Shown: positions 11,956 through 63,706 of the stretch, piece after piece
Position numbering within the stretch: the first letter of the stretch is position 1
Layout of the letters: each line of letters starts with the position of its first letter
Virus record (IMG/VR): IMGVR_UViG_3300024259_001791
Reading direction: 5' to 3' (one strand)
Length of the DNA: 64,000 nucleotides
DNA from: a virus
The notes under the pieces: model-generated
What the model saw: only the letters and a program-made list of their open reading frames with translations
Told to the model about the DNA's origin: nothing
The model's database searches: none
Made by a program: the position numbers and the translations under genes

Positions 11956-12427
11956 TTTAAAGGTTAATTTCATAAAACACTTAAATCAATTGCTTGTTAA
12001 AGATAATGTGGAAGCAATTAATTGCTATAGGCGCTGTTTGAAATTAGAGGATAAAAATGCTCGTCGGCAAACATGCGAGTATAAAGGGTGTACCCCTTAT
12101 AAATTCATGAAAGAATTTTTCTTTATTGGTGGGTTATTTATGGAATATAAAAATAATACAGATAAAGAATATAAGAATTTTGGAGATTCTTGTCGTGAAT
12201 TATATTTTGCGATGGACAAGGCTGATTTGATAAACAATTATTTTCGCAATTTATTGACTCTTGACAACATTGATACAGTTCTTATAGAAATCAAAAGATT
12301 AATTAGTCGAATGACAGAATATTCTATAAAAATTAATTATTCCAATATGTTATCTGATATAATGAATTGGCATCATAAAGATGAGTTTGTGCAAGACAAA
12401 TTAGCGCTATCTTTTTGGAAGAATTAA
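11930..12427 (+). CDS. cse2: Cse2 (Cas11/CasB) small subunit
   Basis: helical 165 aa; FGDSC, FRNLL, INYSNMLSDIMNW and VQDKLALSFW resemble Cse2; position between cas8e and cas7. Confidence 0.75.
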   Translation: MNETKQKNDLKVNFIKHLNQLLVKDNVEAINCYRRCLKLEDKNARRQTCEYKGCTPYKFMKEFFFIGGLFMEYKNNTDKEYKNFGDSCRELYFAMDKADLINNYFRNLLTLDNIDTVLIEIKRLISRMTEYSIKINYSNMLSDIMNWHHKDEFVQDKLALSFWKN

Positions 12428-12460: not shown

Positions 12461-13633
12461 ATGACGATGGAAATCGAAAAAGATGTATTAAGAAAAAACA
12501 GAGGAAACAATTTTGGGGCACCGCACCTTGTCTTAGATATGATTTGGAACAGTCCTGGTGCTAATTTCGTTCGTGACGATATGAATCACCCCAAAAACAC
12601 ATTTTCGGCAGCATTGCTACGTGCAGTTCGAGAAAATTCCAGTAGCCCAGTTAGAATTACTGCCAGCAGAACTGAAGCTATTGATTTTATTAAGAATCAC
12701 GTTCGTGAAATACTGAAAGATAGTGTTGAAATTGATAAAGAAACATTAGATGAAAAAACAGAAGATATCTATGGCAGATATTTTCAAGGTAAGAAGAAAG
12801 AAGAAAAAAATAACAAGAAAAGTGATAACAAGAAAAGTGATAACAAGAAAGATCAACAATTTTTAGGATTTAAGGAAGAATTGCAACATATCGGGAATCA
12901 TATAGCATCGTTGTATGTCGGTAAAGACGAAAAATTGACTCAATTTATTCCTATAGATATTTGGAGAGGCAACCCGGCTTTAGTTAAGACGGAAAATGTT
13001 GATGGGACAAATCAATTACACTGTGATGGTTGTCTGCGCATGAATGGTTATAAACTTGGGTTGCCTACTGCAAAAAGCGAATTTATTGTAGCTAAAGATG
13101 ACTTATGCCTTACTCAGTCTAAAGGTTCTTTTATGGGCATTCGTTACGCACACAGTGATTCACTTTACTATGTTAGTGCTTGTATAGAACTTGTACGTCC
13201 TTTTGAATTAAGTGGTTTGCACAAAAGAGATTTTGAAGATGACTTCAAAGAATTAATTACGAATATAATTTATTCCCGTCCAAACGGCATGACCGAAATT
13301 TACAATAACGATCAGATTACGACAGAATTTATAACGGCACGAATTAGACATGGTGGACAACGTACTTATGGGTGTGGTGGAGTTTATGGAAAAACCACCC
13401 CACAAGGAGCGGAGTCTACAGGAGAGGTTGTAGATCATCTAATCTCATATTTGGATTATCAGTTGGCAAATCATGGAGATTATGAGAATAATAATGTAGA
13501 ATGTTTTTATGTTCCTTTATGGAATTGGAAAACACAATATCCAGATCGTTGGGAATCTTGTAAAAATCATCCTTCTTTCGTGGAAAAACTAGCGAAAACA
13601 AGTATCGAAGCAATTGATAAACATTTAGGATAA
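12461..13633 (+). CDS. cas7: divergent Cas7e (CasC)
   Basis: RDDMNHPK, LLRAVR, EFIVAKDDL and LYYVSAC motifs; size and position. Confidence 0.7.
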   Translation: MTMEIEKDVLRKNRGNNFGAPHLVLDMIWNSPGANFVRDDMNHPKNTFSAALLRAVRENSSSPVRITASRTEAIDFIKNHVREILKDSVEIDKETLDEKTEDIYGRYFQGKKKEEKNNKKSDNKKSDNKKDQQFLGFKEELQHIGNHIASLYVGKDEKLTQFIPIDIWRGNPALVKTENVDGTNQLHCDGCLRMNGYKLGLPTAKSEFIVAKDDLCLTQSKGSFMGIRYAHSDSLYYVSACIELVRPFELSGLHKRDFEDDFKELITNIIYSRPNGMTEIYNNDQITTEFITARIRHGGQRTYGCGGVYGKTTPQGAESTGEVVDHLISYLDYQLANHGDYENNNVECFYVPLWNWKTQYPDRWESCKNHPSFVEKLAKTSIEAIDKHLG

Positions 13634-61557: not shown

Positions 61558-61590
61558 AAAAAGGGCCGGTCAAATGACCGGCCCTTTTTT
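61558..61590. terminator. intrinsic terminator, possibly bidirectional
   Basis: AAAAA-GGGCCGGTC-AAAT-GACCGGCCC-TTTTTT. Confidence 0.85.
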
Positions 61591-61651: not shown

Positions 61652-61724
61652 GGTGACTATGGTGTAATCGGCAGCATGGGAGGTTGTGAGCTTCTCGGTG
61701 CCAGTTCAAATCTGGTTAGTCACC
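61652..61724 (+). tRNA. tRNA-His(GTG)
   Basis: G-1, acceptor GTGACTA/TAGTCAC, loop TT-GTG-AG, T-loop TTCAAAT, C73; CCA not encoded. Confidence 0.88.
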
Positions 61725-61793
61725 CGTTAAGAAGTTAGTAAGTTGGATCGTTGAGGATTTGACTGTTAAAGTTGATAAGTAAATATAGAATAT

Positions 61794-61869
61794 GCGGGCG
61801 TAGCTGAATTGGAGCAGCGGTGGCCTACGAAGCCATGTCATTATGTAGGTTCGAGTCCTACCGTCCGTA
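61794..61869 (+). tRNA. tRNA-Arg(ACG)
   Basis: acceptor GCGGGCG/CGTCCGT; GTGGC-CT-ACG-AA-GCCAT; T-loop TTCGAGT; 8-nt variable region. Confidence 0.88.
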
Positions 61870-61944
61870 GTTAATATTTTTACATTTTTATTAAGAAGGA
61901 TTTTCCGAACCTTTATAGTATTATATATAACAGAGGTTTGAATT

Positions 61945-62841
61945 ATGAAAAGAGATATTAAACATAATTGGAAAGTTATTCAAAAATATTATAGTGATGG
62001 GCATACCTGGAAGGAATCTGCTATAAAGTTTGACATCACTGAATCAAGTATTAGATATGCCTTAAAACAAAAAGAATTGATTAGTCATCATTCTAAAAAA
62101 GAAACAGGGAAATTGATTTCTGAAAAACTTTCAAAAATTATGAAAAAAGTCCATGAAGAAGGGAGACATCCTGGTTGGTTATCTGTTAATCTTAATAAAG
62201 AAAACAGGACATATGCTGAACAATATTTTTTGGATATGATAAATTTTAATAAAAAGATATTTAATAAATGGACTATTTTAGAAAAAGTACAATTTAGTAA
62301 ATATGTTTTAGACTTTGCAATATTAGAATTAAAATTAGATATAGAAATAGATGGGCAATTTCATATTACAGACAAAAAAACTATTGCCAAAGATAAAAAA
62401 CGTAATCGATTTTTATTAGAACAGGGTTGGCGTGTATTTCGTATAGGATGGCCTGAACTTAAAGATAATAGAGAAAAAATTATTAAAGAATTGTGTGAGT
62501 TTATACAAACAATTGACATAGAGGATGATAGTGAGATCAATATCGTTATAAAAAAAGATATTGGTTTTATACGTTGTTTTCGTGCGGCTAATTTTATTAT
62601 CAATCCAAAACGTAAACTTAAAAAGTTTAAAACTAAAGTTGATTATAATAAATACAGGAAAGAGAATTATATTCCTAGAGAAAATACAAGAAAAGTTAGA
62701 AGACCAAGTAGTCAACAATTATTAGAAGATTTAAAAACAATGTCGTATTGTGCTGTAGGAAGAAAATATGGTGTTTCTGATACATGTATTAGAAAATGGT
62801 TAAAGTATTATAAAAAACAAAAACATACGCCTATGGTGTAA
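61945..62841 (+). CDS. DUF559/Vsr-like homing endonuclease with HTH segments
   Basis: YVLDFAI, IEIDGQFH, DKKRNRFLLEQGWRVFRI and C-terminal VGRKYGVSDTCIRKW. Confidence 0.82.
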   Translation: MKRDIKHNWKVIQKYYSDGHTWKESAIKFDITESSIRYALKQKELISHHSKKETGKLISEKLSKIMKKVHEEGRHPGWLSVNLNKENRTYAEQYFLDMINFNKKIFNKWTILEKVQFSKYVLDFAILELKLDIEIDGQFHITDKKTIAKDKKRNRFLLEQGWRVFRIGWPELKDNREKIIKELCEFIQTIDIEDDSEINIVIKKDIGFIRCFRAANFIINPKRKLKKFKTKVDYNKYRKENYIPRENTRKVRRPSSQQLLEDLKTMSYCAVGRKYGVSDTCIRKWLKYYKKQKHTPMV

Positions 62842-62897
62842 CAGCAGCATGGAAGATTCCAAATCTTTTGGCGAGGGTGCAAATCCTTCTAGGCGTG
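62827..62897 (+). tRNA. tRNA-Trp(CCA), non-canonical D/T loops
   Basis: acceptor ACGCCTA/TAGGCGT; GAAGA-TT-CCA-AA-TCTTT; T-loop TGCAAAT; G73. Confidence 0.8.
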
Positions 62898-62898
62898 G

Positions 62899-62970
62899 TC
62901 ATGAGTAGTGTAGTAGTGGCACACCACCCCTATTAGGGTGGCAGCATAGGTGCAAGTCCTGTCTCGTGAG
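62899..62970 (+). tRNA. tRNA-like gene (Asn-like) with 6-nt anticodon loop
   Basis: acceptor TCATGAG/CTCGTGA, D-stem GTGT/ACAC, CACCC-CTATTA-GGGTG, T-arm ATAGG-TGCAAGT-CCTGT, G73. Confidence 0.6.
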
Positions 62971-62973
62971 TTT

Positions 62974-63043
62974 CGTGCGATGGTGTAATATTAGCACACT
63001 GCCAAGTAGGGCAGGAGTAAAGGTGTGAATCCTTTTTGCACGA
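62974..63043 (+). tRNA. tRNA-like gene, undetermined isotype, 6-nt anticodon loop
   Basis: acceptor CGTGCGA/TTGCACG, D-stem GTG/CAC, CTGCC-AAGTAG-GGCAG, T-arm AAAGG-TGTGAAT-CCTTT, A73. Confidence 0.55.
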
Positions 63044-63046
63044 CAA

Positions 63047-63119
63047 GGGCTGGTAGTTTAACAGGCAAAACACTCGACCGATAATCGAGAGAGTGGCGGT
63101 TCAAGCCCGCCTCGGCCTA
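63047..63119 (+). tRNA. tRNA-Ile(GAT)
   Basis: GTTT/AAAC D-stem; CTCGA-CC-GAT-AA-TCGAG (C at position 33); T-loop TTCAAGC; A73. Confidence 0.85.
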
Positions 63120-63632: not shown

Positions 63633-63706
63633 CGGAACGTGGGAAAGCTTGGTAATCCGTCCGGTTTGGGACCGGAAAATCGCCAGTTCGAATCTGGCCG
63701 TTCCGA
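63633..63706 (+). tRNA. tRNA-Pro(TGG)
   Basis: CGGAACG/CGTTCCG; TCCGG-TT-TGG-GA-CCGGA; T-loop TTCGAAT; A73. Confidence 0.92.

Follow-up and report, generated by a model that had tools for sequence, protein, structure and literature searches.

The closest described counterparts of the genes considered here are phage transfer RNAs (tRNAs) with altered anticodon loops. Van den Berg et al. (2023, PMC10264068) predicted that anticodon-loop substitutions in phage tRNAs confer resistance to VapC, PrrC, and colicins D and E5, and two further reports concern the countering of retron effectors and PARIS by phage tRNAs (PMC11555353, PMC11464382). The subject of this study is a pair of adjacent tRNA-like genes, unit 1 and unit 2, in the DNA of a virus (IMG/VR record IMGVR_UViG_3300024259_001791); the whole stretch analyzed, 64,000 nucleotides (nt) long, is referred to as the window. 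Like the published counter-defense tRNAs, the two units are array genes whose anticodon loops depart from the host-type consensus, and the proposed selective agent, host enzymes that attack tRNA, is the same. The known counter-defense tRNAs, however, retain loops of 7 nt with a functional anticodon and replace depleted tRNAs, whereas units 1 and 2 have 6-nt loops (unit 2 of a related lineage has 7 nt without U33), probably cannot decode, and so would act as mimics or decoys. A nuclease-evading phage tRNA is decoding-competent and carries substitutions at the loop positions recognized or cut by a host nuclease; the altered loop length of the two units leaves them without a normal anticodon. No paper on non-decoding phage tRNA mimics or decoys was found in the literature searched.

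Almost all tRNAs have anticodon loops of standard size, and the few exceptions are not known to bring about frameshifting (Atkins et al. 2016, PMC5009743). Natural non-standard loops are reported there for a yeast mitochondrial tRNA, for “tRNAs in a phage that has many relatives”, and for a glass-sponge mitochondrial tRNA. The units share with such tRNAs an otherwise complete tRNA body and a loop that is not 7 nt long, and an 8-nt drawing of unit 1 is formally possible. Suppressors of +1 frameshifts with 8-nt loops include sufD, sufA6/SufB2, and sufJ, and loop-replacement experiments concerned with doublet decoding were reportedly carried out by Bruce, Atkins and Gesteland in 1986. Most of the known non-standard loops are enlarged, and the laboratory suppressors are matched to frameshift sites, whereas the loops of the units are contracted. 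No paper on a six-nucleotide anticodon loop was found in the literature searched, and related phrasings gave only doublet decoding by ordinary tRNAs.

Phage tRNA clusters can also contain tRNA pseudogenes and fragments beside free-standing homing endonucleases, as with SegB of T4 (PMC2330249). The array studied here resembles such clusters in having at least four endonuclease-like genes among its tRNAs, together with true tRNA fragments. Unlike cluster pseudogenes, both units retain their full length with every pair intact, and they are conserved even in a lineage that lacks the adjacent endonuclease gene. Complete or partial tRNA folds that are made beside real tRNAs and act outside ribosomal decoding are a further parallel. 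The staphylococcal cell-wall (non-proteinogenic) tRNA-Gly is aminoacylated and has a normal 7-nt anticodon loop, with UGC instead of T-psi-C in its T loop; the stable RNAs C and D of phage T4, whose function is unknown, are encoded in the T4 tRNA region. With U54-G55, the T loops of both units and of the tRNA-Trp of the array resemble the staphylococcal UGC T loop, with no sequence relationship between them.

Two complete cloverleafs with six-base anticodon loops

A preliminary description of the locus had proposed two adjacent tRNA-like genes with paired stems and 6-nt loops, CTATTA and AAGTAG, and every one of these features was found in its place (Table 1). Unit 1 has a 7-base-pair (bp) acceptor stem with U1-A72 and discriminator G73, a D stem GTGT/GCAC, a T stem ATAGG/CCTGT, and a T loop UGCAAGU. 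Its anticodon stem, in which CACCC (62925-62929) pairs with GGGTG (62936-62940), closes the 6-nt loop CTATTA (62930-62935), where U33 and A37 are present; all 21 stem pairs form, as standard or G-U pairs. C62924 and G62941 can form a sixth anticodon-stem pair, with which the arm spans 18 nt. The arm is drawn as 5 bp and an 8-nt loop in the Rfam alignment and as 6 bp and 6 nt by folding (frequency 0.92). Given that the related lineage has A at the position of G62941, 5 bp with a 6-nt loop is the conserved form of the arm, and the 8-nt loop requires opening of the conserved C-G closing pair. Read from the bases, the elbow of unit 1 has one D-loop G able to pair with C56, together with U54-A58 and G55 (U55 in the relative).

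Unit 2 has C1-G72, discriminator A73, and a 4-nt variable region, so that the acceptor ends that the preliminary description gave for both units, and the short variable loop of the second, are correct as statements about sequence. All 21 pairs of unit 2 form, again as standard or G-U pairs, and its minimum-energy fold is a perfect cloverleaf (z −2.65). Both units have the stem lengths of a canonical tRNA (acceptor 7 bp, D 4 bp, anticodon 5 bp, T 5 bp) and its 7-nt T loop. The anticodon stem CTGCC (62999-63003)/GGCAG (63010-63014) closes the 6-nt loop AAGTAG (63004-63009), which lacks U33; the arm is 16 nt long, one below the standard 17. The D loop, AATATTA, has no GG, and the T loop, UGUGAAU, has G55 and U56. 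On the same reading, the absence of a D-loop G and the presence of U56 characterize the elbow of unit 2 in both lineages. A canonical anticodon loop has 7 nt with U33, a purine at position 37, and a three-base anticodon, and neither unit has such a loop.

ARAGORN, which the preliminary description had suggested as a check, assigns two-base anticodons to both: unit 1 is called by default as tRNA-??? with anticodon “at”, and unit 2, missed by default ARAGORN and by the whole-window Rfam run, appears only at the 80% threshold, as tRNA-?(Thr|Tyr)(gt). With relaxed speed filters Rfam finds unit 2 at an E-value of 4e-8; the RF00005 scores in Table 1 are to be compared with a gathering cut-off of 29 bits. 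Anticodons of two or four bases are rare in ARAGORN output, at 3/640 tRNAs from 59 other phage or metagenome loci.

The Trp-to-Ile block that holds both units is letter-for-letter identical in ten independent assemblies (Logan, JGI, and ENA samples; contigs 99.8-100% identical overall), which effectively excludes a sequencing or assembly artifact. That the 6-base loops are errors in ordinary tRNA genes has in its favor only the prior that homopolymer-type indels occur. The ten identical assemblies come from three pipelines, all three assemblies of the second lineage repeat the 6-nt loop of unit 1, and both loops lie more than one indel away from any canonical loop, so the probability of such errors is negligible.

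Three other ideas about the pair were discarded. Each unit has its closest match within the array in the other, at 64% identity, a value at roughly the 95th percentile of class I pairs; an origin by recent copying of an array gene was rejected on this basis. The loops of the window strain could kiss through four pairs, but the relative has not retained this potential, and strict A18/G55 covariation fails because unit 1 of the relative has U55 with an unchanged D loop.

Comparison with a second lineage

A second lineage (L110-L112) was found through a 220-amino-acid protein encoded upstream of the array. Its gene order, His-Arg-Trp-1-2-Ile, is the same as in the window, minus the DUF559 endonuclease gene that lies between Arg and Trp, and its alignable flanks have a mean identity of 77.9% to the window strain. 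An exhaustive HMMER search with the same upstream protein found no third lineage. Pattern scans of IMG/VR for either unit or for tandem G55 T loops gave no homologue, nor did scans of GTDB genomes or searches of 58 unrelated phage arrays from the IMG/VR scan with blastn-short and nhmmer; a pattern scan of a metagenome collection gave 31 loci, all unrelated. Anchoring on neighboring genes was equally negative: the nucleoside deoxyribosyltransferase-like neighbor has 753 homologues, in other contexts without tRNAs, and the DUF559 endonuclease has three distant homologues only, in unrelated tRNA clusters. No match to the window was found among INPHARED phage records (blastn on the array; megablast on 25 kb).

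Unit 1 differs between the lineages at 5/72 positions (93% identical; P about 5e-4 at the flank rate of 22%). At paired sites, U4-G69 becomes C4-G69 and a U50/U64 mismatch arises in the T stem of the relative; the unpaired changes are A9G, G55U, and G62941 to A. The 16-nt anticodon stem-loop, including CTATTA, is unchanged (16/16; P about 0.02). Unit 2 differs in 10 alignment columns, of which 8 are unpaired and the other two are both sides of a compensatory replacement of G29-C41 by A29-U41 in the anticodon stem. No pair is broken, an outcome reached by only 0.17% of random placements (p about 0.002). The acceptor, D stem, and whole T arm of unit 2 (42 nt) are unchanged (P about 3e-5), while the D loop and variable region have changed. 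The anticodon loop, in contrast to the body, has changed in 4/7 columns and in length, above the flank-rate expectation (P about 0.05).

The arm of unit 2 in the relative is CTACC/CATTGGG/GGTAG, with a loop of 7 nt that is not ordinary: it has A33 and G37, and C32 and G38 are able to pair. At a lowered ARAGORN threshold this homologue is called tRNA-Gln(ttg). Rfam scores the relative's unit 1 at 40.4 bits and unit 2 at 43.6 bits. A33, the absence of G18-G19, and U56 are common to both lineages, which indicates that unit 2 was already non-canonical before they split. By the preliminary description, ordinary 7-nt loops in relatives would refute its reading. Unit 1 withstands this check, with loop and stem unchanged, and unit 2 fails it by half, its loop in the relative being 7 nt long but not ordinary; the compensatory stem change about which the description had asked occurs in the anticodon stem of unit 2.

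The arrays themselves supply relics for comparison. In the window strain, a second tRNA-Val is reduced to a 43-nt 5' piece where an HNH gene ends (L003:11142-11184), while the relative has the whole tRNA gene (L110:8417-8490); a 5' half-tRNA lies at L003:14676-14731 (Rfam 28 bits); and a tRNA-sized remnant after Ile in the relative (L110:6298-6360), the start of which resembles the tRNA-Pro of the window, has several mispaired stem positions. A tRNA pseudogene is expected to show truncation or stem-breaking changes, and the window units are full length without a broken pair; it is also expected to change at the neutral rate without compensation, a pattern that the units do not show in a comparison of two lineages whose arrays recombine. 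The argument of the preliminary description that preserved stems speak against simple decay is borne out, since both units are kept in a relative with flanks about 22% diverged, the 21 pairs of unit 2 survive 10 changes, and true relics are truncated or mispaired.

Identity of individual tRNAs between the lineages ranges from 50% to 100%, which marks the arrays as recombination mosaics. Functional members of the arrays changed as expected: the tRNA-Trp is 97% identical in the relative, and its two changes form one compensatory pair. Within the second lineage, one contig has a strongly divergent Trp allele in which many changes are compensatory and the CCA loop is unaltered (L112:3825-3898 compared with L110:5984-6057). 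This allele of L112 adjoins identical units 1 and 2, which demonstrates recombination with breakpoints at the borders of tRNA genes.

The surrounding tRNA array

The source contig is phage-like, with 36% G+C. The array begins at the 3' end of the window, in the order His(GUG), Arg(ACG), endonuclease gene, Trp(CCA), units 1 and 2, Ile(GAU), nucleoside-deoxyribosyltransferase-like gene, Pro(UGG), and HNH gene (Table 1). At least 13 further tRNA genes follow past the window end in contigs of the same strain (L003-L009), with more endonuclease-like genes between them, which brings the homing-endonuclease-like genes of the array to at least four; a coordinate in L003 equals the window coordinate minus 53188.

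Table 1. Positions of the two units and of neighboring array features in the window
Feature	Position	Strand	Basis and remarks
tRNA-His(GUG), first gene of the array	61653..61725	+	ARAGORN; Rfam 50.5 bits
tRNA-Arg(ACG)	61793..61870	+	ARAGORN; Rfam 53.1 bits
Free-standing homing-endonuclease-like gene, DUF559/Vsr-like nuclease with helix-turn-helix (HTH)	61945..62841	+	Pfam PF04480 (5.5e-11), PF18741
tRNA-Trp(CCA)	62827..62897	+	Rfam 54.6 bits; T loop UGCAAAU (G55); 1 base upstream of unit 1
Unit 1, tRNA look-alike, 72 nt	62899..62970	+	ARAGORN tRNA-???(at); Rfam 41.0 bits
Unit 1 anticodon arm, CACCC/CTATTA/GGGTG	62925..62940	+	Sequence, folding, ARAGORN
Unit 2, tRNA look-alike, 70 nt	62974..63043	+	Minimum-energy cloverleaf; ARAGORN at 80% threshold; Rfam 40.9 bits
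Unit 2 anticodon arm, CTGCC/AAGTAG/GGCAG	62999..63014	+	Sequence, folding
tRNA-Ile(GAU)	63047..63119	+	ARAGORN; Rfam 58.6 bits with alignment; 3 bases past unit 2
tRNA-Pro(UGG)	63633..63706	+	ARAGORN; Rfam

Trp, the two units, and Ile are separated by spacers of 1-3 bases. The last 15 bases of the DUF559 gene overlap tRNA-Trp, and its location between Arg and Trp is confined to the window lineage; L110 lacks the gene and has an Arg-Trp gap of 3 bases. The three detectable homologues of this endonuclease (41-48% identity) all lie in tRNA clusters of unrelated phages (L075, L076, L077, L078), one of them on a 590-kb contig, which suggests that the DUF559/Vsr-like gene with its HTH represents a homing-endonuclease family specialized for tRNA arrays. 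In tRNA-Ile, the anticodon loop CCGAUAA (63078-63084) has C33 in place of the near-universal U33, and C33 is also found in the relative (L110:6206-6278), in a gene that elsewhere shows just 71% identity.

A strong 14-bp hairpin between A and T runs (61558-61589), located about 60 bases before tRNA-His, resembles a bidirectional terminator. In the short gap that follows, the array probably has a promoter of its own, although no convincing sigma-70 match was found in that gap.

A small open reading frame (ORF) with a TacA1-like antitoxin domain lies inside the array in both lineages (L110:9017-9229, 70 amino acids, Pfam PF08681 at 6e-7; L003:12387-12515, 42 amino acids). TacA antitoxins neutralize TacT toxins, which acetylate charged tRNAs, and the ORF may be a phage counter to a TacT-type toxin.

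Three tRNAs of the window strain have long variable arms and unexpected anticodons (L003:12115-12205, 12290-12373, and 13543-13632). The anticodon is UAU once and GUU twice; for the UAU tRNA, Rfam gives tRNA-Sec as the best match, with a sub-threshold score of 32.5 bits. This tRNA and the second GUU tRNA have counterparts of 96-98% identity in the relative. The place of the first GUU tRNA is taken there by an ordinary class I tRNA-Asn, and the window-strain gene looks like that tRNA with about 12 nt inserted in its variable region. Leu, Ser, and Tyr are absent from the tRNA calls for the window-strain array.

T loops with U54-G55 (GGTGCAARTCC) replace T-psi-C in Trp, Thr(GGT), and unit 1 (window 62875-62886 and 62948-62959; L003:12211-12283), where in the window strain they accompany A-G at the D-loop G18-G19 site. 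Tandem U54-G55 T loops in 58 IMG/VR phage contigs (L017-L074) indicate that the variant is widespread in phage arrays. The Thr(GGT) gene of the window strain is missed by default ARAGORN.

What the two units may be

The reading that we tentatively favor, at somewhat less than even confidence, is that both units are tRNA-shaped RNA genes whose fold is kept under selection and which do not read codons in the ordinary way. As we infer their life cycle, the units would be transcribed together with the array, and RNase P and 3' processing would release them as they do their neighbors, a step suggested by the short spacers that tie the unit ends to Trp and Ile. CCA would then be added, as proposed because the tRNA 3' ends inspected here do not encode it, and the units would persist as stable L-shaped RNAs. 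Their 6-base loops would keep them from normal triplet decoding, which in unit 2 would be hindered further by the lack of U33 and of the G18-G19/C56 elbow contacts. The most likely role of such RNAs would be that of tRNA mimics that occupy a tRNA-binding protein, with unit 1 presenting the fixed loop CUAUUA on an Asn-type U1-A72/G73 acceptor and unit 2 presenting a fast-changing loop. The preferred candidate for that protein is a host tRNA-directed defense enzyme or toxin, such as an anticodon nuclease, a specific proposal that is itself unlikely; the target could, for example, be a nuclease that acts specifically on tRNAs of the Asn/Tyr/His/Asp group. That both RNAs are dedicated anti-defense decoys, which block or soak up a host tRNA-attacking enzyme while the loop of unit 2 takes part in an arms race, is decidedly unlikely as a complete account. 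The fixed loop of unit 1 beside the fast-changing loop of unit 2, the C33 of tRNA-Ile, and the TacA1-like ORF are compatible with a conflict over tRNA.

Several points weigh against the favored reading. The placement of the five changes in unit 1 is not different from random (p 0.24), and the relative's unit 1 carries the T-stem mismatch U50/U64. Two lineages are known and every statistic is a single comparison, so the evidence for conservation of the units is real but thin; moreover, high unit identity could partly reflect recent exchange and not constraint. A fold kept solely for the processing of the abutting Trp and Ile would give a similar pattern in unit 2. No Pth2-like or other tRNA-acting gene was found among 26 ORFs of the array region (all compared with Pfam, 6 also with PHROGs).

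In another explanation, possible though doubtful, the units are inactivated tRNA genes without a function of their own: indels in the loops ended decoding, and the genes persist by linkage or as processing scaffolds. In one variant the units travel with a recombining block driven by homing endonucleases; in the other, a misfolded unit would spoil RNase P and 3'-end processing of Trp and Ile, so that the fold alone is kept. In favor of this explanation, neither loop can present a normal triplet, and unit 2 lacks U33, G18-G19, and C56. The loop of unit 2 is free to change and its body is not, which is what a structural “spacer” constraint predicts, and with so little between the genes the unit ends define the ends of their neighbors. 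The array also contains homing-endonuclease-like genes (at least four) and undoubted tRNA fragments, and the absence from the relative of the endonuclease gene beside Trp indicates recent block turnover. However, deletion of a dead unit would leave Trp and Ile abutting like other array members, so a processing need fails to explain why two units are kept in both lineages. The loop and stem of unit 1 are conserved at 16/16 positions, yet RNase P does not read the anticodon arm, and the one compensatory change of unit 2 sits in its anticodon stem. Moreover, the true relics of these arrays have lost part of their length or their pairing. The preliminary description had also raised religated-tRNA-like relics. 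Loss of base 34, as in RloC-type wobble-base excision and religation, turns neither an Asn nor a Tyr loop into CTATTA or AAGTAG, and the idea was dropped.

That one or both units are unusual but working tRNAs is improbable, although several features of the locus invite the suggestion. Unit 1 could be of the Asn type and read AAU with an AUU exposed on its contracted loop, or could promote frameshifting through doublets or an offset triplet; unit 2 could have an anticodon that differs by lineage, GUA-like in the window and UUG in the relative. Unit 1 keeps U33, A37, U54-A58, G19-C56, and U1-A72/G73, the last being features of bacterial tRNA-Asn, and Asn codons in the window are most often AAT (36.7 per thousand, against 14.3 for AAC). 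The homologue of unit 2 has a 7-nt loop and its lowered-threshold ARAGORN call as tRNA-Gln(ttg), neither array was seen to contain a Tyr or Gln tRNA as far as it is sequenced, and the tRNA-Ile of the array tolerates C33. The acceptor of unit 2 (C1-G72, A73), however, fits neither the bacterial Tyr nor the bacterial Gln identity rules, its U33 and elbow bases are missing in both lineages, and working tRNAs do not evolve by exchanging the anticodon of one amino acid for that of another between close lineages. An Asn-reading unit 1 would join existing GUU tRNAs: the window lineage has an extended-variable-arm Asn(GUU) and a second, long-arm tRNA with a GUU anticodon, and the relative has an ordinary class I Asn(GUU) and the same long-arm GUU tRNA. 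Natural tRNAs with non-standard loop sizes do exist, also in a phage (PMC5009743). Frameshift suppressors, another suggestion of the preliminary description, are expected to have an enlarged loop of 8-9 nt with an extra anticodon base, whereas both units have 6 nt and the arm of unit 2 is one base short. Nothing was found in favor of suppression: no split or frame-shifted gene, and no gene that would require a frameshift, was seen among the 82 plus-strand ORFs of the 64-kb window, where the ORFs in each of the five long open-frame overlaps begin at start codons of their own.

Current explanations treat phage tRNA genes as codon supplements or as nuclease-resistant replacements of host tRNAs, and the units described here fit neither. 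Default tRNA finders label such genes “???” or, as with unit 2, miss them, so they are under-counted in phage annotation. If the two units are expressed and selected, they would show that a conserved six-membered anticodon loop occurs in nature, and would represent a third phage use of the tRNA fold, as mimicry directed toward some protein. If they are indeed decoys, they would belong to a class of phage counter-defense RNA for which no description was found in the literature searched.

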